Shown piece by piece: positions 2,508 to 16,302 of a stretch of DNA of 64,000 bases. Numbering within the stretch: the first letter of the stretch is position 1; each line of letters starts with the position of its first letter. Below the pieces are notes generated by a model, which was not told the origin of the DNA, did not search any database, and saw only the letters and a program-made list of their open reading frames with translations. The stretch comes from Gammaproteobacteria bacterium (GTDB taxonomy: Bacteria > Pseudomonadota > Gammaproteobacteria > Eutrophobiales > Eutrophobiaceae), in NCBI GenBank assembly GCA_041984885.1, contig JBHIXH010000010.1, forward strand, positions 1,697 through 65,696. The letters run 5' to 3'. The translations under genes were made by a program, and so were the position numbers.

Positions 2508-4205
2508 GTGCTGGCCGGCTCGGCTGGGCTGCCGGTGTTGTCCGCACTCGGCCTTATATCCGGCGTCATTGTCGGTTTGTTGATCGTATTGTTTCGCCTG
2601 TATATCGAATCCAGCCAGTCCGCGATATTGCCCGGCGGTGATCCGGAAAACTACGAGCAGCTCGAACCTGTAATGCGTCTTGCGCTGTCGGTCGGTGGTG
2701 GTGTCCTGCTCGGCATCCTCTTTCTAATCATGGGGCGCAACCTGATTCGTGTCGGCATCATCCACGTGCTGGAGCGGCTGAATTACCAGGAAGGTCATCT
2801 GCCCTTTCGCAATGCCGCGTTCCAGTTTATTGCCGGTGGTATCTCGATCATCTCCGGTCACTCGGTCGGGCGTGAGGGACCGAGCGTGCATCTCGGTGCG
2901 GCCGCGTCCAGCCTGCTAGGGCAAAAGCTGCGCCTGCCGAATAACAGCATTCGCACACTAGTAGCCTGTGGTGCCGCGGCAGCGATAGCCGCATCGTTTA
3001 ATACACCGCTGGCCGGCGTCATCTTCTCGATCGAGGTGATCATGCTGGAATACAGCATCATCGGTTTTATCCCGGTCATTCTCGCCGCGGTGAGTGCCAC
3101 GGTCGTGACACGACTCGTGTTTGCGGCGGACCCGGCGTTCGTCGTCCCGGCGCTGAATCTCGCCTCGTTCTGGGAATTGCCGATCATTATCCTGATGGGT
3201 GTGGCCATCGGTGCGATCGCGGCCCTGTTTATCCACCTGACGAAGCAGTTTACCCAGTGGGGGAAACCGTTGCCGGTTTATCTGCGCCTACCGGTCGCCG
3301 GACTTGTCGTTGGCGTGCTCGCGTTTACTGCGCCCGAGATCATGGGCATTGGTTATGACACGGTAGATAAAGCGATCCTGGCTGATATCGGACTCGGGAT
3401 GCTGGTCTGGATATTGTTGATTAAATTGTTGGCGACGGCTGCCGGTGTCGGGCTGGGATTACCGGCCGGCCTGATCGGTCCGACTTTATTTCTCGGGGCG
3501 ATGGTCGGTGGCGCGGTCGGACAAATCGTCGATCAACTGCCGATGATCGCCTCGCATCCGGGTTTGTACGCGATGCTGGGCATGGGTGCGATGATGGGTG
3601 CCACGTTGCAGGCACCGCTGGCCGCGTTGATCGCGTTGCTGGAACTGACCGGCAATCAAAACATTATCTTCCCCGGTATGCTTGCGATCATCAGTGCCAA
3701 CCTGGCGACACGCGAATTGTTTGGTCAGGGCTCGATTTATCGTACCCAGATGCAGCAGATCGGTCTCGATTATCGCAACGATCCGTTTGCACAGTCGCTG
3801 CGCAAACTGGGTGTGGCCTCGGTTATGAACACGAATTTTGTCTTGATGACGCCGACGGTAAAACGCGAGCGGGCGATGGCGATCCTGGCGCAAAGGCCAC
3901 AGTGGCTGGTCATTAAAACAGAAAAGAACATGAACCTGTTGTTGCCGGCGGCGGACCTGGCCCGTTACCTGGAAGAAGCGACCGAGGAGGAGATCGACTT
4001 ACTCGAAGTGCCGGGCCAGCGGCTTGAACTGGCCCCGATCCGGCAACAATCAACGTTGCAGCAGGCACACCGGCAGTTGCAGGAGACCGATGCCGAGGCG
4101 TTATATGTGATTCAACCGATCGGTGCCGGCGGTGACCGCATCTTCGGTATTATCACCGCGCAGGATATCCAGCAGGGTTACCACTTACGCGGCCATGAAT
4201 TCTAG
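2508..4205 (+). CDS. ClC-family voltage-gated chloride channel/antiporter with C-terminal CBS region
   Basis: 565 aa, multi-TM. Has the ClC selectivity motifs 'GREGPSVHLGAA' and 'GLPAGLIGPTLFLGAMVGG'. The cytoplasmic C-terminal ~150 aa fits a CBS pair. Confidence 0.85.
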   Translation: MLAGSAGLPVLSALGLISGVIVGLLIVLFRLYIESSQSAILPGGDPENYEQLEPVMRLALSVGGGVLLGILFLIMGRNLIRVGIIHVLERLNYQEGHLPFRNAAFQFIAGGISIISGHSVGREGPSVHLGAAASSLLGQKLRLPNNSIRTLVACGAAAAIAASFNTPLAGVIFSIEVIMLEYSIIGFIPVILAAVSATVVTRLVFAADPAFVVPALNLASFWELPIIILMGVAIGAIAALFIHLTKQFTQWGKPLPVYLRLPVAGLVVGVLAFTAPEIMGIGYDTVDKAILADIGLGMLVWILLIKLLATAAGVGLGLPAGLIGPTLFLGAMVGGAVGQIVDQLPMIASHPGLYAMLGMGAMMGATLQAPLAALIALLELTGNQNIIFPGMLAIISANLATRELFGQGSIYRTQMQQIGLDYRNDPFAQSLRKLGVASVMNTNFVLMTPTVKRERAMAILAQRPQWLVIKTEKNMNLLLPAADLARYLEEATEEEIDLLEVPGQRLELAPIRQQSTLQQAHRQLQETDAEALYVIQPIGAGGDRIFGIITAQDIQQGYHLRGHEF

Positions 4206-4409: not shown

Positions 4410-8193
<3,784 letters not shown>

Positions 8194-8199
8194 TACAAC

Positions 8200-8487
8200 A
8201 TGAGACTGCTGGCCACCACATTACTGTTACTGCTTGTATTGTTGCAGTATCGCTTGTGGTTCGGTAATGGCAGTATGACCGACCTGCATCACTTGGAGTC
8301 GATTAAACAGGCGCAGGTCGAAGAGAATACCGAATTGAAGGAACGCAACCAGTCACTGGCGGCCGAGGTGATCGATTTGAAACAGGGACTGGATGCAATA
8401 GAAGAGCGTGCCCGTAGCGACATGGGTATGGTGCGGGAAAATGAAACCTTCTTTCAAATCGTTCGTTCCTCCAACGCACAACTATAA
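8200..8487 (+). CDS. ftsB: cell division protein FtsB
   Basis: 95 aa with one N-terminal TM followed by a coiled coil. Sits in the conserved eno-ftsB-ispD-ispF position. Confidence 0.8.
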   Translation: MRLLATTLLLLLVLLQYRLWFGNGSMTDLHHLESIKQAQVEENTELKERNQSLAAEVIDLKQGLDAIEERARSDMGMVRENETFFQIVRSSNAQL

Positions 8488-8498
8488 GTTTTCACTCT

Positions 8499-9203
8499 AT
8501 GTCTGATGTCAGGTATTGGGTCGTGATTCCGGCCGCGGGTATCGGTAAACGAATGCAGTCAGACATACCCAAGCAATACCTGAAGCTGGGTGAACGTACG
8601 ATCCTGGAACATACGATTCAGTGTTTTCTTGATGAAGCAAAAATACATCGCATCGTTGTTGTCATTGCCGAGCATGACAGTTACTGGTCGTCGTTAAGTA
8701 TTCATAATGACAGGATCATTACGGCTGATGGTGGTGCCGAACGTTGTCACTCGGTACTGAATGGATTAACGGCTATTCAGGACCAGGCAGATGATAATGA
8801 CTGGGTACTGGTGCACGATGCTGCCCGGCCTTGTTTGTCACGAAGTGAACTGAATCGGCTAATCAGTGAGGTTGGTGATGATGACGTTGGCGGAATACTG
8901 GCTGTACCGGTGCGTGACACGATGAAACGCGGCACAGCAGACAACGAAATCGCCGAAACAGTCGATCGGAATCAACTCTGGCACGCGTTGACACCGCAGA
9001 TGTTTCGTTTTCATAAATTACTGTCATCCCTGCGTAATATTCAGAAATTACAGCAAATTGTCACGGATGAGGCGGAGGCGATAGAGAAAACAGGCGTCAA
9101 AAGTCAGTTAGTCAGGGGCGAATATTCAAACATAAAGGTCACCGAAATGGGTGATATTGAGCTGGCAATCTTCTACCTACAACAACAGGAAAAAGCCCGA
9201 TGA
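8499..9203 (+). CDS. ispD: 2-C-methyl-D-erythritol 4-phosphate cytidylyltransferase
   Basis: 234 aa with N-terminal '[11 protein letters not shown]'. It is followed by ispF with a 4-nt overlap. Confidence 0.88.
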
Positions 9204-9673
9204 GAATTGGTCATGGCTATGATGTGCATCGTTTCGTGGCCGACCGGCCACTCATTCTCGGTGGTGTCGAGATTGCATATGAGTACGGCCTGGAAGCGCA
9301 CTCTGATGGCGATGCCGTCATTCATGCGCTCTGCGATGCGTTACTCGGGGCGGCAGGACTCGGTGATATTGGTCACTTCTTCCCGGATACCGACCGTGAA
9401 TTCAAGGACATAGACAGCCGTATACTACTACGAAATGTAGTAGAGCAGCTGTTTGTAAACAACTATCAATTGTGTAATGCAGATATTACCGTTATCGCCC
9501 AGGCACCGAAACTTGCACCACATATTGAATCAATGCGAAAAAATCTTGCAGCCGATCTGCAAGTAAAGATCGATCAAATTAATATCAAGGCGACGACAAG
9601 TGAAAACATGGGATTCCTTGGCCGCAAGGAAGGTATCGCTGCACACTGTGTTGCACTCATTGATTTAAAGTAA
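9200..9673 (+). CDS. ispF: 2-C-methyl-D-erythritol 2,4-cyclodiphosphate synthase
   Basis: 157 aa, '[12 protein letters not shown]' and '[10 protein letters not shown]'. Confidence 0.9.
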
Positions 9674-9846
9674 ATATTAAAATTTGTAAAAATTTCTTTT
9701 CTGTAAATCTTCTTCATATCTTCACCTTCCTGATTTTATTACTGATAGACTAATAGCAGGTTGGCGCTGCTGAGTGCTTGCCTGATTACCTGTCAATTTA
9801 ATAAATATAAAACCAATCTGGCTACTATGGTCGGGAAGGAGGAGAA
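9674..9846 (+). promoter_or_regulatory. AT-rich upstream/promoter region of the rpfF-like gene, with two TGTAAA repeats
   Basis: A 173-bp AT-rich intergenic region. TGTAAA occurs at 9685-9690 and 9702-9707. The RBS 'ggaaggaggag' precedes ATG 9847. Confidence 0.4.
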
Positions 9847-10752
9847 ATGAAAACTGTTAAATTTGCTAATGAAGTGCGCCTGAAAAACTTTCAGCACCTG
9901 GAAGTTGAAGTCATACCGGAGTTAAACACGGCGTGGTTATATTTTAATGCCAAACCACGCAGCTGTTTTACCCTGACACTGTTACAGGAGTTACAGGAGT
10001 TTCAGAATATCCTGTCACAGCAGCAGGGCAAACTGCCATGCGATAATGACTTGATCGATATCCAGTATAATGTGATCAGCTCAAAACACTCGGTGTTCAG
10101 TTTTGGTGGTGATCTGGATTACTTTATACAGTGTATCGAAAAGCAGGATCGTGAAGGATTAAAGCTGTATGCAAGGAAATCGATTGATGCTGTTTACTTC
10201 AATCACATAGGTCGAGAACATGATCTGACAACGATCTCCCTGGTGCATGGGAATGCACTTGGCGGTGGTTTTGAGGCCGCGTTATCCAGTCATGTAATCA
10301 TCGCCGAGAACCAGGCCGAGATGGGTTTGCCCGAAGTACTGTTTAACCTGTTTCCTGGCATGGGTGCCTATCAATTTATTTCTCAAAAAGGTGGTGCGGC
10401 TTTAGCCGAGAAAATGATTCTGAGTGGTCGGTTATACAGCGCCGAGGAATTACAGGAGATGAAAATTGTCGATGTGCTTGCCGAAGACGGCGAGGGCAGA
10501 TCAACAGTGCATGGATGGATACGCAATAACCGAAAACGCCAGAATACAATGAATGCATTACGCAAGGTCAAGCAGAGAGTGAATCCTGTCGATTACAAGG
10601 AATTGCAGGAGATCGGTGAGATCTGGGTAGATGCAGCTTTCAATATTTCAGAAAAGGATTTACGCACCATGGGACGGCTTGTGCGTAGTCAGTCAAAACA
10701 CTCCAGGCTGGAGGATCAGAGTCAGGTAAAAGAGCAAAGACTTTTTCGTTAA
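9847..10752 (+). CDS. rpfF: DSF-family signal synthase (RpfF-like enoyl-CoA hydratase/crotonase-fold)
   Basis: 301 aa. The crotonase core 'VHGNALGGGFEAALSSHVIIAE...MGLPEVLFNLFPGMGAYQF' keeps both RpfF catalytic Glu positions. The C-terminal stretch 'IGEIWVDAAF..SEKDLRTMGRLVRSQSKHS' closely parallels the Xanthomonas RpfF C-terminus. Confidence 0.8.
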   Translation: MKTVKFANEVRLKNFQHLEVEVIPELNTAWLYFNAKPRSCFTLTLLQELQEFQNILSQQQGKLPCDNDLIDIQYNVISSKHSVFSFGGDLDYFIQCIEKQDREGLKLYARKSIDAVYFNHIGREHDLTTISLVHGNALGGGFEAALSSHVIIAENQAEMGLPEVLFNLFPGMGAYQFISQKGGAALAEKMILSGRLYSAEELQEMKIVDVLAEDGEGRSTVHGWIRNNRKRQNTMNALRKVKQRVNPVDYKELQEIGEIWVDAAFNISEKDLRTMGRLVRSQSKHSRLEDQSQVKEQRLFR

Positions 10753-10828
10753 TTTAAACGAATAAATTTTTGTTAACTGAACTGATAACTGTCGCAGGAC
10801 AGATTCTCAAACAAACTGGAGAAATGAA

Positions 10829-11914
10829 ATGAAGAAAGTAGACACGAAACAGTTACGTGCGCTGGTGTCCCGGTTTAACCGGCCGGATGATCGTATTGCG
10901 CTCGGTCTGTTTACATTTGATGTGATCATGCTCGTCGCCTTGACATGTGGTGTGATTTTTCTGCAACCCGTCTGGTTGAAACTTGTGTGCAGCATAATGG
11001 CCGGTATGCAGATATCCACATTGTTTGTCATCGGTCACGATGCAGCACACAACACATACACCAGTAGTCGCAAGCTAAACGAGATTATCGGTCGTATAGC
11101 CTTTTTACCTGCGTTGCATAATTATGGTTTATGGCTAAGGGCACATAACCGGATGCATCACCAGGTGAATAATGTGCAGGGATATAATTCGTGGTCACCA
11201 TACTCGCTTGAGGAATATCGAAGCATGAGCAGGTGGCAACAAATGCGGGAGCGGTTTTACCGCAGTGTTCCTGGTATCGCTGTGTACTACATGATTGAAC
11301 GCTGGTGGAAAGAGAAGTTTTATCCATTCAGCCATATCGAAGGCAAATATAATTCAGTATATGGCGATTTTGCGTTGATCGTGGCTGGCCTCGCCATTTA
11401 CCTGTCAGGTCTGGTTTATGCCGGTGCAGTGTTGTCACATACGACGGTGCTGGAGTTGTTGGTGCTGGGTTTTGTTTTGCCAACAATGGTCTGGAACTTC
11501 ATGATAGGTTTCACAGTGTATCAACACCATACACATGAAAATATTTCATGGGCACGCACGCTGGAGGAACGCAACCGTCTCGGTGATCAGGAAGACTTCA
11601 CCATGCATGTGCAATATCCTGCCTGGTATAACCTGTTAAGTCATAACATTATGGAACACACGGCACACCATGTTGATCCACGTATTCCCTGTTATCGACT
11701 GGCTCAGGCACAGACAGTGATTAAACGTGCACTCGGCGATCAGATGCATGCGATTCGATTTACTATTGGCGGGTTTTTACGGACGATCCACCGCTGCCAG
11801 CTGTATGATTATGACAATCATTGCTGGCTGGATTTTGCAGGTAATCGCACGACCGGTCGTTTGCATCAGGCTGATGTTGCTTCGGATGTAACCGAGGTTG
11901 CGGTCGCTGCCTGA
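10829..11914 (+). CDS. membrane fatty-acid desaturase family protein (three His boxes)
   Basis: 361 aa, four predicted TM segments. His boxes 'HDAAHN', 'HNRMHH' and 'HTAHHVD' are spaced as in the di-iron FA_desaturase family. It lies 76 bp downstream of rpfF on the same strand. Confidence 0.75.
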   Translation: MKKVDTKQLRALVSRFNRPDDRIALGLFTFDVIMLVALTCGVIFLQPVWLKLVCSIMAGMQISTLFVIGHDAAHNTYTSSRKLNEIIGRIAFLPALHNYGLWLRAHNRMHHQVNNVQGYNSWSPYSLEEYRSMSRWQQMRERFYRSVPGIAVYYMIERWWKEKFYPFSHIEGKYNSVYGDFALIVAGLAIYLSGLVYAGAVLSHTTVLELLVLGFVLPTMVWNFMIGFTVYQHHTHENISWARTLEERNRLGDQEDFTMHVQYPAWYNLLSHNIMEHTAHHVDPRIPCYRLAQAQTVIKRALGDQMHAIRFTIGGFLRTIHRCQLYDYDNHCWLDFAGNRTTGRLHQADVASDVTEVAVAA

Positions 11915-11929
11915 TTAATCAAGCAGAAA

Positions 11930-11968
11930 AATAATACCCCGGCACATCTGATTGTGCCGGGGTAAATA
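11930..11968. terminator. bidirectional terminator hairpin between the desaturase and the rpfC-like gene
   Basis: CCCCGGCACA-tctgat-TGTGCCGGGG, a perfect 10-bp stem flanked by A/T-rich sequence at the convergence point. Confidence 0.65.
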
Positions 11969-14497
11969 CTAGTAGTTCGTTGCAGTGGAATTGTCTTTTT
12001 TCAGGTAGCGGTGCATTTCGTCCCGGGTCTGTAAAAAAGTCGTCTGCAGGTGTTCGAGTATGTTATCGGAAAGCTGGGATAAATCCGCGTTACGCGCAGC
12101 GTGACATATCACATCCGCGATCGAGGCAAGCTGTTTTGCACCGATACTTCTCGAACTCCCATCCAGGGTATGGGTATGATGCCCGAGGACCTCAAAATTC
12201 TTGTCCAGAAAAGCTGTCCTGATCTGTCCAATAGTCTCCTCGGAGTCATGCAGATAGCCGTTGATTAACTCGTGCATGAATTTGTTATCGGGTGCGATTT
12301 CAGTTATCTCCTGTAGAACCCTTAAATCCAGTAGCGGCAGGTTATCAACATTATTAGCGACCAGTTGCAACCTGGGTTTGCCCCGGTTGCTCTCCTTATC
12401 CAGTTTCTTTATAAGCAATTCACTGATGGTATTCAGCAGTTTTTGCGGTTCTACCGGTTTCGTCAGGTAGGCATCCAGACCGGCTTCTTCTACCTCCCGC
12501 ATGGCCTCTGTTGTCGCATTGGCAGTCAGTATCAAAACCGGAATGTGTTTTTTCTCGGGATGCATCATGCGATAGAGTTTCGCAGCTTCTATCCCGCCCA
12601 TGATCGGCATTTGCATATCAAGGATCAAAAGATCGAAGTCACGTTGCTCAAGTTCATCCAGCGCCAGTTCACCGTTCTCGGTCATGGTGACCCTGTGACC
12701 ACCTTTTTCCAGGATTTTTTGAATGACTTTCTGATTTGTTGGGTTGTCTTCTCCAACCAGTATGTCAAGGTCGGCGACGATGTTTGATATCCGATCGTCT
12801 GTTTCAAGTGCCTTGATAGTATTAATTTCGTCAAAATTCTGATGGCTCCTGATGACAGCATGCAGGCAACGAAACAGCGATGTCAGGTTAACAGGAGCGT
12901 GCAATGCAGATGCAAAGTCAGCCTCGAGCAGCTTATCAGAAAGCGCATCGGTCAGGTTTTCGCCAATATAAACCAGGCTGGGTTTGTTTTCGCCCACCTG
13001 GTTAAACAGGTCTTTGGCAAAGCCAACAGGTTCTATACTTTCATTGGCTAAAACGACAACATTATATTTTGAATCATCAGTGCCATCACCGGTTGTCAGA
13101 AGTGCGAGCGCTTCTGACTCTGTGACAGCTTCATGAGGTGTTATCGAGATTTGGGAAAAGTACTGGAGTAACTGTTTCCCCATTGAATCATTCTGATGTA
13201 CCAGCAGTACCGATCTGCCGAGATGGTGAACCGGTGAATCTATTTCGTGTACTGGCAAAGATTGTTCGACGAGAGGGGTGGTGATCCAGAATGTGCTGCC
13301 AACATTTAACTGGCTCTCAAAATTGATTTCTCCTCCCATCGCTTCAATTAATTGTTTCGCGATTGCCATGCCCAGGCCAGAGCCGCCGAATTCACGCGTG
13401 GTTGATTGATCTGCCTGGGAAAACGTACTGAATATTTTATTCTTCGCTGCCGGATCGATGCCGATGCCGGTGTCCGTGACCCTGATCGTTACATTCACCT
13501 TATTCTCATCAACTGACTGACTGACGACCTGTATTTTTATTTCGCCGGTCTTGGTGAATTTAATGGCATTATTGATCAGGTTAATCAAAATCTGGCGTAA
13601 ATGTTGTGCATCACCGCGTAACAGGACAGGAACGTCCGGCGAAATATGCCAACTGTATTTCAGCCCTTTTTTCTCTGCCACCGGCTTTAACATCAGGGCA
13701 GTCGCATTGATCAAGGCGTAAAAATCAAAGTTGATCGTTTCAATCTCCACCTTGCCGGCTTCGATCTTTGATATATCCAGAATATCGTTGATCAGGGTCA
13801 ACAGTGTTTTGGCTGAAGCATTGATCGTTGAAGAGTACTCTTTTTGTTCGTTAGATAGCCTGGTTTCATCGAGCAATTCGCTCATGCCGATAACGCCATT
13901 CAGGGGCGTACGTATCTCGTGACTCATATTGGCAAGAAACTGACTCTTGGCTTCGTTTGCTGCTTTCGCTTCCTGTACCGCTGCCTGCAGTCGGGAGATC
14001 AGGAATGATACGTAGGCACTGAGGATTACGATTGCTACGGCCAGGCCGTAGCCAAGAATTTTATGCTGACTCCAGAAAGAGTTATACGCGAGTACAAAAC
14101 TGAAACTGATCAGGCTGAGAAACGCACTGGCATACAGGTACCGATTACCATACCGAAAGCCGTGACCAAATGTCATGAATAAATAGGCGCCAAAGAGCGG
14201 GGATCCGATCTCTCCGGTCAGCATGATAGCAGTCGCGAGGAAACTGTGATCCATGACCATGCCAAAATAGCGTCGAAATGGATTGATTTCGGGGTATAGA
14301 ACGATCCAGAAGAAGTTAATCAGCAGGGCAAATTGATAGGCATAGGAAATTAAAAAAATCGATTGTGGCAGGGTATGTTCGAGGCTCATCCAGGAGACAT
14401 AACTAAGCCAGACAAAACCGACGAGAAATCGAATGATAACCTGCTCATGCTCGGAATCATGTCGCTCGGCAAGTCGTTTTAGTATGTTTTCAAACAT
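11969..14497 (-). CDS. rpfC: hybrid sensor histidine kinase (RpfC-like: multi-TM input, HisKA, HATPase, REC, HPt)
   Basis: 842 aa with ~5 N-terminal TM helices. Contains an H-box '[19 protein letters not shown]', an HATPase G-box 'DTGIGI...GGSGLGMAI', a REC domain '[11 protein letters not shown]...LLILDMQMP', and a C-terminal HPt '[12 protein letters not shown]'. Confidence 0.8.
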
Positions 14498-14589
14498 TGA
14501 GCCGTTTTTTCTGTTTCAAATGAAGAGCTTATTTCTCATAACTTTGTCTGACGCTATGTATTTTATCAGGTAATGAACCGGAAAGTATT

Positions 14590-15696
14590 TTAGCCCTGCG
14601 AATTCTGGGTTGAATTTATGAAGTTACCATCCGTTTCACGGGTGATCGGTTCAGATACTTCATCGACAATGGAAATAAAAGCATCAATGCAATCCGGGTC
14701 AAATTCTTTTCCGCGAGCGTTTTTCAGATACTCCAGCGCATCCTCGTGATTCCACGCTTTCCGGTAACTACGACTGCTGGTTAAGGCATCATAGACGTCG
14801 ACAACAGCCACGATCCTGGCCTCAATCGGAATCTTGTTCCCACTCAGATTATTCGGATAGCCCTGGCCATCAAAGCGTTCATGATGATTCAGTGCGATGA
14901 TTGCTCCCATGTCGAGAAAATCCGACTCACTGTTTTTCAGAATCTGATAACCGATCCAGGTATGACGTTGTACTATCCTGCGTTCATCGTCAGTCAATGC
15001 ATCGGTTTTGTTCAATATGGTCTCGGGAATGCCGACTTTACCGATGTCATGAATAACCGAAGCCTGCTCGATCGTATTACAAAAATCTTCCGGCAACCCC
15101 ATCACCTCGGCGGTACGTCGTGACAGTATGCCGACACGCTGAAAATGTTGATCACAAGGCACATCGCGAAATTCAGCAGCACGTGCAAGCCGGTAGAGTA
15201 TTGCACTTTCGCGGGTACGGATATTCACGGCCTGTTCCTGGTAACTCTTTTCAAGAGAGGCAGCCCGCTCGCGAATAATAGTCTGTTGCCTGCGCAGGTT
15301 CAGCAGGTTACGACAGCGAACCTTGCATTGATAATGGTCGATGGGTTTACACAGAAAATCTGTGGCGCCGGCGTCGAGTGCGTCATACAACACCGATTTA
15401 TCATCAACAATCGTCACAACGACAATTGGAATATCACACAGCAGCGGGTTTTCCCTGAATGATCGAATCAATTCAATACCGTCCATGTCCGGCATTTTGT
15501 AGTCAGTCAGGATAAGATCCGGAATATCTTCTTCAGCTGCCCGCAGTGCTTCTCTTGCATTGTCAAAACTGACTATCGAAATATTATGTCCAACGGTTTT
15601 AATAATCGTCTCGAGGATCCTGCGTTCGGTCGCCTGGTCATCAATAATCATGACCGAAAGCCTGAGTGATTGATCTCTTTTTTCGGGGTTATTCAT
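14590..15696 (-). CDS. rpfG: response regulator with HD-GYP phosphodiesterase domain (RpfG-like)
   Basis: 368 aa. REC domain 'VMIIDDQ...ILTDYKMPDMDG...CKP', then an HD-GYP domain with 'HDIGK' and 'HHERFDGQGYP'. Confidence 0.85.
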   Translation of the reverse strand: MNNPEKRDQSLRLSVMIIDDQATERRILETIIKTVGHNISIVSFDNAREALRAAEEDIPDLILTDYKMPDMDGIELIRSFRENPLLCDIPIVVVTIVDDKSVLYDALDAGATDFLCKPIDHYQCKVRCRNLLNLRRQQTIIRERAASLEKSYQEQAVNIRTRESAILYRLARAAEFRDVPCDQHFQRVGILSRRTAEVMGLPEDFCNTIEQASVIHDIGKVGIPETILNKTDALTDDERRIVQRHTWIGYQILKNSESDFLDMGAIIALNHHERFDGQGYPNNLSGNKIPIEARIVAVVDVYDALTSSRSYRKAWNHEDALEYLKNARGKEFDPDCIDAFISIVDEVSEPITRETDGNFINSTQNSQG

Positions 15697-15738
15697 ACAA
15701 ATACAATATCGTTATTTTGAATTTATCAGTGCTATTGA

Positions 15739-16302
15739 CTACTGGCTGGAACGTTTCAGCAATACATAAACGGCACCGGTACCTCCGTCGATCGGCCGTG
15801 CTGAACAAAAGGCCAACACCCTGTCATCGAGTTGCAGCCAGTGATTCAACCTGTTTTTTAAAACGGGTAATTGATTACGTGAACCACGACCTTTGCCATG
15901 AATGATCCTGACCGCGTACGCTCCTCTCTGTGTTGAGCGTTGCAGAAAATCCTTTACAGCCGTATTCGCCTGAGTCACTACCATGCCATGCAGATCCAGT
16001 TCATCCTGTATTGCTATTAAACCGCGTTTTAATTTTCGCAGTGTCTGTTTTTGAATACCTGGTCGCAGAAAGCTGAGTTCATCGCCTGTATCGACGCTGG
16101 GCACATCGAACGGTTCAGTGCCTAACTGATGAATGACTGCCTGTTCATCCGCGAGCGATTGAGTCGGGACAGGTTCAGGTCGTTTCCTTTCGAAATGAAT
16201 CCGGTCGTTTTCTACCGGTGTTACTTCACCAATCGCGTTGCGAAACAGGTCGATATCAGTATCGCTTAACTGTTTCGTCGGTCTTTTTTTATTACTGACC
16301 AT
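15739..16302 (-). CDS. smrB: Smr-domain endonuclease (SmrB/YfcN family)
   Basis: 187 aa with a C-terminal Smr domain: 'LDLHGM...A', 'IIHGKGRGS', 'LKNRLNHWL'. Confidence 0.75.
   Translation of the reverse strand: MVSNKKRPTKQLSDTDIDLFRNAIGEVTPVENDRIHFERKRPEPVPTQSLADEQAVIHQLGTEPFDVPSVDTGDELSFLRPGIQKQTLRKLKRGLIAIQDELDLHGMVVTQANTAVKDFLQRSTQRGAYAVRIIHGKGRGSRNQLPVLKNRLNHWLQLDDRVLAFCSARPIDGGTGAVYVLLKRSSQ

Follow-up and report, generated by a model that had tools for sequence, protein, structure and literature searches.

Why would a gene for a membrane fatty-acid desaturase stand directly beside the gene for a predicted cell-cell signal synthase? This question is raised by a 64,000-nucleotide stretch of DNA (the window) from a gammaproteobacterium of the family Eutrophobiaceae (contig JBHIXH010000010.1, assembly GCA_041984885.1). 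Here, a crotonase resembling RpfF, the synthase of signals belonging to the DSF (diffusible signal factor) family, is encoded just upstream of a desaturase, and the pair is faced by genes for an RpfC-like sensor kinase and an RpfG-like response regulator. The linkage of the desaturase with an RpfF-like gene is strongly supported by comparison of related loci, and the desaturase is very probably tied in function to the Rpf system. As to what it does there, the leading reading, which we favour tentatively, is that it would oxidatively tailor the acyl chain derived from RpfF. Among known DSF-family signals the only differences lie in the length and branching of the chain and, in rare cases, a second double bond, and each of these is attributed to the fatty-acid pool offered to RpfF. 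If the tailoring reading is true, the oxidase encoded in the cluster would give the DSF family its first dedicated tailoring step.

The identities of the signalling genes can be read from their domains and motifs. The crotonase shares 44% identity (201 bits) with RpfF of Xanthomonas campestris (PDB 3m6m) and 34% with the RpfR-type RpfF (6dgn), and it passes the NCBIfam model PRK08788 (NF006452; 340.9 bits against a cut-off of 177). This protein and every linked homologue retain GGGFE and PEVLF, the two motifs with the catalytic glutamates. With the RpfF equivalog model NF053515 the crotonase reaches 246.8 bits, under the cut-off of 550, and it is therefore an RpfF-like relative rather than RpfF by the NCBI definition. 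In the sensor kinase, Pfam HisKA, HATPase_c, REC and HPt domains follow an N-terminal input region of multiple transmembrane (TM) segments, with about five hydrophobic segments within residues 1-170, and the regulator retains intact HD (residue 216), HHE (271) and GYP (279) motifs. Judged from these features, crotonase, kinase and regulator make up a complete set of the RpfF/RpfC/RpfG type.

The desaturase has the hallmarks of an intact membrane di-iron enzyme. Its open reading frame (ORF) begins at an ATG with a GGAG 7 nt upstream, and the protein scores 92.9 bits with Pfam FA_desaturase (PF00487; cut-off 29.7). The three His boxes, HDAAH (residue 70), HNRMHH (106) and HTAHH (277), are complete, their histidines being invariant in an alignment of 84 homologues, and the four hydrophobic segments have their centres near residues 29-51, 57-61, 185-195 and 203-222. 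The three His boxes, the four TM helices and the desaturase fold together place the protein in the PF00487 desaturase/hydroxylase superfamily. The gene follows that of the crotonase on the same strand after 76 nt, a spacer in which no promoter-like or terminator-like site was found and no stable hairpin is predicted (the fold is not significant, z -1.5). Adjacent synthase-desaturase pairs in 23 related loci are spaced by 18-91 nt, with a median of 46 nt. Because the two genes share a strand and are separated by a short, terminator-free spacer, as their relatives are, they are likely co-transcribed. The initial annotation of this DNA had described an RpfF-like synthase followed, 76 nt away on the same strand, by a desaturase with four TM segments and three His boxes and probably transcribed with it. 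The ORF, Pfam and motif checks bear out this description of the desaturase, the synthase label holds at family level, and co-transcription is plausible on the spacing given above.

Does the pairing extend beyond this genome? An alignment of desaturase homologues was scanned against one genome per bacterial and archaeal species, which gave 80 loci, and the gene order at each locus was established by tblastn with the window proteins and by ORF clustering. A neighbour-joining tree without bootstrap divided the loci into an in-group of 56, which holds the window clade, and an outgroup of 23, mostly from Planctomycetota and other phyla; one short match was left out. With linkage defined as an RpfF-like gene within 7 kb of the desaturase, 30 of the 56 in-group loci are linked, against none of the 23 outgroup loci, and about 24 in-group desaturases have no rpfF within that distance. 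One further locus (L018) is cut upstream, yet keeps rpfC, rpfG and smr beside the desaturase. The linked loci come from Gamma-, Alpha- and Betaproteobacteria and from Gallionella, and the genes are held together in at least five orders. In Gammaproteobacteria and a Gallionella metagenome-assembled genome (MAG), the crotonase and desaturase genes run in tandem towards rpfC and rpfG on the opposite strand. Alphaproteobacterial MAGs (Kiloniellales, Rhodospirillales) have a gene of the DUF4442 family, the desaturase and the crotonase in tandem, convergent with rpfC. Betaproteobacterial MAGs show three arrangements: the crotonase gene convergent with rpfC, beyond which the desaturase gene reads away from rpfC and towards an opposed rpfG; crotonase, desaturase and rpfC all on one strand; and desaturase followed by rpfC, convergent with the crotonase gene. 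The order ispDF-crotonase-desaturase, opposed by rpfC, with or without rpfG, and smr, is kept in all gammaproteobacterial relatives of the window, including the closest (70% identity).

The pairing that the initial annotation proposed to look for in other genomes is thus conserved across classes and gene rearrangements, and the prospect it had raised against its own reading, namely that no orthologue is linked to rpfF in other genomes, is contradicted by the 30 linked in-group loci. These data also bear on the alternative that the desaturase has no functional relation to the cluster and is a chance insertion into a conserved housekeeping region. The rpf cluster does lie among core genes, flanked by pyrG-kdsA-eno-ftsB-ispDF and by smr-purL, and this synteny is also found with no desaturase in it. 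A chance insertion is, however, hard to reconcile with the contrast between in-group and outgroup and with linkage that is kept in unrelated contexts and orders in Alpha- and Betaproteobacteria and Gallionella; the comparative data bring this explanation close to refuted, and we consider it highly improbable.

The view from the synthase side is different. When an RpfF alignment was scanned against metagenome contigs, at least 80 loci of 41-51% identity were collected as an arbitrary sample, 63 of which have 1.1 kb or more of sequence on the downstream side of the synthase gene. In 34 of the sampled loci rpfC is directly convergent on rpfF, and one of the 80 (L162) has a desaturase, which belongs to the same in-group. 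On a neighbour-joining tree of 114 RpfF sequences, built without support values, the synthases linked to a desaturase are scattered over at least five separate positions, and their desaturases are all of one subfamily. A sister group of the large gammaproteobacterial clade, with the same ispF/smr synteny, is free of the desaturase (L089-L091, L109, L111, L121). Nested within the desaturase-positive clade is a pair of MAGs with the same synteny in which rpfF is directly convergent on rpfC and the desaturase is missing (L084:6001-9561 and L085:6001-9661). About 150 kb from the first of these clusters, on the same 2.33-Mb contig, lies a divergent in-group desaturase (L036, 39% identity), which suggests relocation rather than loss. 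Since one in 80 sampled RpfF-like loci carries it, the desaturase is an accessory gene that RpfF clusters carry in particular lineages, one that has been gained, lost or relocated on several occasions and is always drawn from one subfamily; the count of such events is approximate because the neighbour-joining trees have no support values.

If the desaturase is an accessory, what stands in its place elsewhere? Some other lineages have, between rpfF and rpfC, an "iron-containing redox enzyme" of family PF14518, with a haem-oxygenase-like fold and 215-245 aa, which by its family would be a second, unrelated oxidase recruited to DSF-type clusters; L162 holds both oxidase types. RpfF-like clusters from soil metagenomes have a beta-ketoacyl synthase (KAS) and an acyl carrier protein (ACP) between rpfF and rpfC, accompanied in L103 and L160 by a PlsC-type acyltransferase, and the KAS+ACP pair suggests cluster-encoded precursor supply. 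At another locus (L150) a Coq4-like protein fills the space. Taken together, these occupants would fit a slot for tailoring or supply better than one for membrane maintenance. It is possible, though we advance it with reserve, that DSF-type clusters have a variable tailoring slot between synthase and sensor genes, filled according to lineage with a membrane desaturase (the window and at least 30 genomes), a haem-oxygenase-like iron oxidase or KAS+ACP, each giving its own class of fatty-acid signal. The clusters of widespread, uncultured marine Gammaproteobacteria that bear the desaturase would then make so far undescribed di-unsaturated or oxygenated DSF by means of the first dedicated signal-tailoring oxidase.

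The same slot invites a reading, also raised as an alternative in the initial annotation, in which the desaturase acts before RpfF, on a longer lipid- or CoA-bound chain that is later shortened or returned to the pool, and the 3-hydroxyacyl substrate reaching RpfF would then be unsaturated beforehand. Such precursor shaping would draw on the same linkage evidence as tailoring of the product, is compatible with an enzyme of the acyl-lipid or acyl-CoA type, and has a parallel in the KAS+ACP loci, where precursor supply can be cluster-encoded. It is nevertheless improbable, as the substrates of RpfF are ACP-bound intermediates of the type II fatty-acid synthesis (FAS II) pathway (PMC4504480, PMC4542539), no route is known from a membrane-desaturated chain back to 3-hydroxyacyl-ACP, and the cluster has neither a ligase nor an acyl-ACP synthetase.

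A further recurrent partner is found on the desaturase side. A DUF4442 hotdog-fold gene is the immediate upstream neighbour of the desaturase gene, on the same strand, in eight in-group loci from Alpha- and Betaproteobacteria, whether rpfF is near or not; three of the eight are alphaproteobacterial loci that also have rpfF. In unlinked Stellaceae loci, a Crp-family regulator and a long-chain acyl-CoA ligase are encoded near the DUF4442-desaturase pair. No DUF4442 gene was found within the window. The desaturase would thus repeatedly accompany proteins of thioesterase type, namely RpfF, which has thioesterase activity, and the DUF4442 protein, which is thioesterase-like by fold and is assumed to have the activity.

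The ligase genes near unlinked in-group desaturases in Stellaceae would also suit signal turnover, in which the desaturase oxidises and inactivates the DSF-family signal or by-product acids and so limits their accumulation. The position of the gene adjoining rpfF, as rpfB does in xanthomonads, points the same way, and RpfB-dependent turnover of the signal has reportedly been proposed in Xanthomonas. Desaturation or hydroxylation alone, however, does not degrade a fatty acid, the cluster has no beta-oxidation genes, and a destroyer made from the same promoter as the synthase would serve no purpose unless regulated post-transcriptionally. We therefore regard turnover as quite improbable.

Under the favoured reading, that of signal tailoring, the desaturase gene would be a functioning accessory of a cluster for cell-cell signalling of the DSF type (RpfF/RpfC/RpfG) and would share a transcript with the synthase gene. 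As established for RpfF homologues and presumed for this one, RpfF would take 3-hydroxyacyl-ACP from fatty-acid synthesis, dehydrate it to cis-2-enoyl-ACP and set the free acid loose on the inner side of the membrane. The O2-dependent membrane di-iron enzyme would then oxidise the medium-chain acyl chain, a second double bond being the likeliest outcome and hydroxylation or another oxidation being possible too. Many FAD2/DesA-type enzymes count three carbons from an existing double bond, and an FAD-type enzyme counting in this manner would yield a 2,5-dienoic product. The modified signal would be exported, sensed by RpfC and turned by RpfG into hydrolysis of cyclic di-GMP. In this scheme we infer the co-transcription, the substrate, the regiochemistry and the equation of the product with the signal. 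What counts in its favour is that the linkage is clade-wide and survives rearrangement, that the linked synthases are spread over the RpfF tree, that the two genes are closely spaced, that other fatty-acid-tailoring genes fill the same rpfF-rpfC slot elsewhere, and that the desaturase recurs beside a DUF4442 gene.

A product of this kind would resemble CDSF (cis,cis-11-methyldodeca-2,5-dienoic acid) of Xanthomonas oryzae and Burkholderia, which also has a second double bond. We know of no dedicated desaturase for CDSF, whereas the present cluster encodes a dedicated enzyme. Known producers make CDSF as a minor product and, for it as for all other DSF-family signals, require nothing beyond RpfF and the FAS II pool (PMC4542539), in agreement with the earlier statement in the initial annotation that second double bonds of this type come from the fatty-acid pool without a dedicated enzyme. 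As for the substrate, a useful comparison is UndB of Pseudomonas, likewise a membrane di-iron enzyme of the FADS superfamily, which takes free medium-chain acids, the class that RpfF releases; the comparison draws on the published biochemistry of UndB. Unlike the putative role of the desaturase, UndB makes 1-alkenes by oxidative decarboxylation. The route proposed for UndB is beta-hydrogen abstraction, and a cis-2-enoic acid does not have the C3 sp3 hydrogen that such a route requires. Free acids of C10-C18 are substrates of UndB, which prefers C12 and uses ferredoxin and its reductase (PMC11204201), and action of the desaturase on the free RpfF product would for this reason be chemically reasonable.

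How far does the cluster depart from known DSF systems? Like the Xanthomonas rpfB-rpfF/rpfC-rpfG cluster, it has an RpfF-type crotonase gene convergent with genes for a multi-TM HisKA-HATPase-REC-HPt kinase and a REC-HD-GYP regulator, and it carries an accessory fatty-acid enzyme gene beside rpfF on the same strand. Unlike in Xanthomonas, where RpfB is an acyl-CoA ligase encoded upstream, the accessory is a membrane di-iron desaturase encoded downstream of rpfF. The hosts differ as well, the xanthomonads being plant pathogens and the carriers of window-type clusters being uncultured, largely marine Gammaproteobacteria, next to which some Alpha- and Betaproteobacteria also have the desaturase. 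No rpfB lies next to rpfF at this locus, the neighbours of the synthase gene being ispF upstream and the desaturase gene downstream, and no AMP-binding enzyme was found among the scanned ORFs of the window. In xanthomonads rpfB adjoins rpfF, although this linkage is not universal among DSF systems, and the word "desaturase" in a review of DSF signalling denotes only the dehydratase activity of RpfF itself (PMC4504480). The rpfFCG cluster of Leptospirillum has no desaturase. No description of an rpfF-linked membrane desaturase was found in full-text open-access papers and preprints, and a report elsewhere is possible. By its gene content, then, the cluster is set apart by a desaturase in place of RpfB beside the synthase from the known RpfF/RpfC/RpfG DSF systems, to which its parts belong.

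Several observations weigh against tailoring of the signal. The first concerns the relatives of the desaturase. In a PDB sequence search its sole match is a Chlamydomonas FADL chain (8xks_K, 19% identity), and source annotations from the Joint Genome Institute (JGI) call homologues acyl-lipid omega-6 (delta-12) desaturase, a label that is annotation only; the nearest relatives by structure and annotation are thus acyl-lipid desaturases working on membrane lipids. The best NCBIfam models are NF052548 (DesA, Delta(5); 63.1 bits) and NF052549 (DesB, Delta(10); 49.9 bits), which align end to end (desaturase residues 3-336 with profile positions 4-325 of 328); with cut-offs of 500 the protein lies far under both equivalog thresholds and is a member of neither, and no curated delta-12 model in NCBIfam matches it. 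It differs from FAD-type acyl-lipid desaturases of the cyanobacterial DesA and plant FAD6 kind in its low identity to the FADL chain, in its signalling context and in an in-group signature of its own. Seven positions (N98, S121, R158, K163, F164, F181 and Y267) are near-fixed within the in-group and differ in the outgroup. Two of them, R158 and K163, are basic in in-group desaturases and hydrophobic in the outgroup and lie in a conserved ERWWKxKF helix spanning residues 147-164; they would fit an anionic substrate head group, which we offer, in favour of tailoring, as a lead only. Within the in-group, no column at strict thresholds divides rpfF-linked from unlinked desaturases, and one weak column (V230) appears at relaxed thresholds, so nothing in the rpfF-linked enzymes hints at a special substrate.

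The second set of observations concerns the signalling side. Clusters of the same synteny without the desaturase (L084, L085, L089-L091) imply that the signalling system needs no adjacent copy, and no electron-donor gene was found in the cluster. The sensor region of RpfC (residues 1-170) shows no extra divergence in desaturase-free clusters: window and L084 are 52.7% identical here, against a median of 43% for desaturase-positive pairs, in a test that is weak because the L084 genome keeps a distant in-group desaturase. Moreover, all carriers of the desaturase are uncultured MAGs.

These points leave room for membrane-lipid homeostasis, in which an ordinary acyl-lipid desaturase acting on phospholipids is co-expressed with RpfF. 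The broad thioesterase/dehydratase activity of RpfF would drain acyl-ACPs and disturb the membrane, and the desaturase would compensate, in line with the role proposed for RpfB, or it would represent a quorum-regulated remodelling output. The membrane lipids of X. oryzae are altered by RpfF activity, RpfB is thought to counteract the RpfF thioesterase, and an rpfF mutant of X. campestris pv. campestris (Xcc) shows changed fatty-acid desaturase expression (PMC4504480, PMC8659556). With lipid-acting relatives, a sensor that does not co-vary with the presence of the desaturase, about 24 of 56 in-group members away from rpfF with no sequence signature to set them apart, and these lipid effects in Xanthomonas, a membrane role is a real alternative, albeit one that we judge unlikely on balance. 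It is not obvious why a housekeeping lipid desaturase should remain beside rpfF, rpfC and rpfG while gene order was rearranged at least five times across three classes. The slot-mates elsewhere (KAS+ACP and the soluble iron oxidase) are biosynthetic rather than devoted to membrane maintenance, and the recurrent DUF4442 partner points to thioester or free-acid chemistry.

The outcome matters either way. If the desaturase tailors the signal, new signal structures and species-specific "dialects" are predicted, and DSF signalling would extend to abundant uncultured marine and soil Proteobacteria. If it repairs the membrane instead, it would be a functional analogue of RpfB and would support the idea that RpfF activity has a lipid cost that cells offset. 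The natural variants of the cluster, namely those with no adjacent desaturase, with no rpfG or with other enzymes in the slot, provide a comparative framework.

Table 1. Coordinates of the features discussed, given for the window or, where a locus label precedes them, for the related locus.
Feature	Position	Strand	Basis
RpfF-type crotonase (predicted DSF-family synthase), 301 aa	9847-10752	+	Pfam ECH_1/ECH_2, NCBIfam PRK08788, comparison with Xcc RpfF 3m6m
Synthase-desaturase spacer, 76 nt, GGAG ribosome-binding site at ~10817-10820	10753-10828	+	Sequence, signal scan, fold
Membrane di-iron fatty-acid desaturase-family protein, 361 aa, four TM segments	10829-11914	+	PF00487, His boxes
GC-rich hairpin, 12 bp, between the desaturase and rpfC-like genes	11935-11964		Terminator scan and fold
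RpfC-like hybrid sensor kinase, 842 aa	11969-14497	-	Pfam, N-terminal hydrophobic segments, synteny in related loci
RpfG-like response regulator, REC + HD-GYP, 368 aa	14590-15696	-	Pfam Response_reg and HD_5/HD, motifs
PF14518 enzyme	L108:6010-6738
PF14518 enzyme	L153:2407-3054
PF14518 enzyme	L156:3535-4239
PF14518 enzyme	L158:5887-6585
PF14518 enzyme	L167:6145-6792
PF14518 enzyme	L162: about 2670-3400	-
KAS+ACP	L103:1881-4250
KAS+ACP	L113:2061-3589
KAS+ACP	L130:2916-4444
KAS+ACP	L136:3500-5028
KAS+ACP	L160:1825-4238
DUF4442 gene	L012:6420-6890
DUF4442 gene	L014:1134-1604
DUF4442 gene	L019:6416-6886
DUF4442 gene	L022:6406-6909
DUF4442 gene	L025:6494-6970
DUF4442 gene	L034:6226-6729
DUF4442 gene	L041:1633-2178
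DUF4442 gene	L050:3296-3799

Further observations concern the sensor and regulator genes of the cluster and its relatives. The RpfC-like kinases, that of the window (14400-14497, minus strand) and its homologues, share a conserved acidic motif, N-R-E-D-S-E-H-E-Q, ahead of their first TM segment. It is kept in kinases from clusters both with and without the desaturase and is a candidate ligand-sensing element. In five gammaproteobacterial loci with the crotonase-desaturase pair facing rpfC (L003, L005, L008, L013 and L086), the REC-HD-GYP regulator is missing and smr directly follows rpfC, and a remnant of rpfG is seen in L038 (about 10708-11244); the desaturase is retained where rpfG is lost, in a sample picked by desaturase. 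Three loci, L002 (about 11800-14000), L011 and L015, have a second hybrid histidine kinase, an rpfC-like paralogue, after rpfG. A 2.7-kb fragment labelled Thermodesulfobacteriota (L017, BQJP01000161.1), with crotonase and desaturase genes facing rpfC, clusters tightly with gammaproteobacterial L010, L038 and L069 and is probably a binning contaminant.

Within the window, the plus strand carries pyrG, kdsA, eno, ftsB, ispD, ispF and then the crotonase and desaturase genes, and the minus strand carries the genes for the hybrid histidine kinase and the REC-HD-GYP regulator, which converge on this pair, followed by smr and purL. The hairpin between the convergent desaturase and kinase genes folds with -31.7 and -33.9 kcal/mol on the two strands (z -6.9 and -7.9), and a U-run is present solely on the minus-strand transcript. 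G+C content is 0.45-0.49 from ftsB through smr (window 8200-16300), a region that includes ispDF and the four rpf-cluster genes; the synthase gene is lowest at 0.449, compared with 0.52-0.54 in the flanking pyrG, eno and purL and 0.512 in the window overall. The pyrG gene, for CTP synthase, is broken into ORFs at 4431-5588 and 5570-6085 (window 5490-5570) by an apparent single-base deletion near 5520 (GCCGCGGTGAATACGCACGC), after which 17 residues continue in another frame. Because pyrG is essential, this split is probably an assembly error in the A-run and not a real pseudogene.

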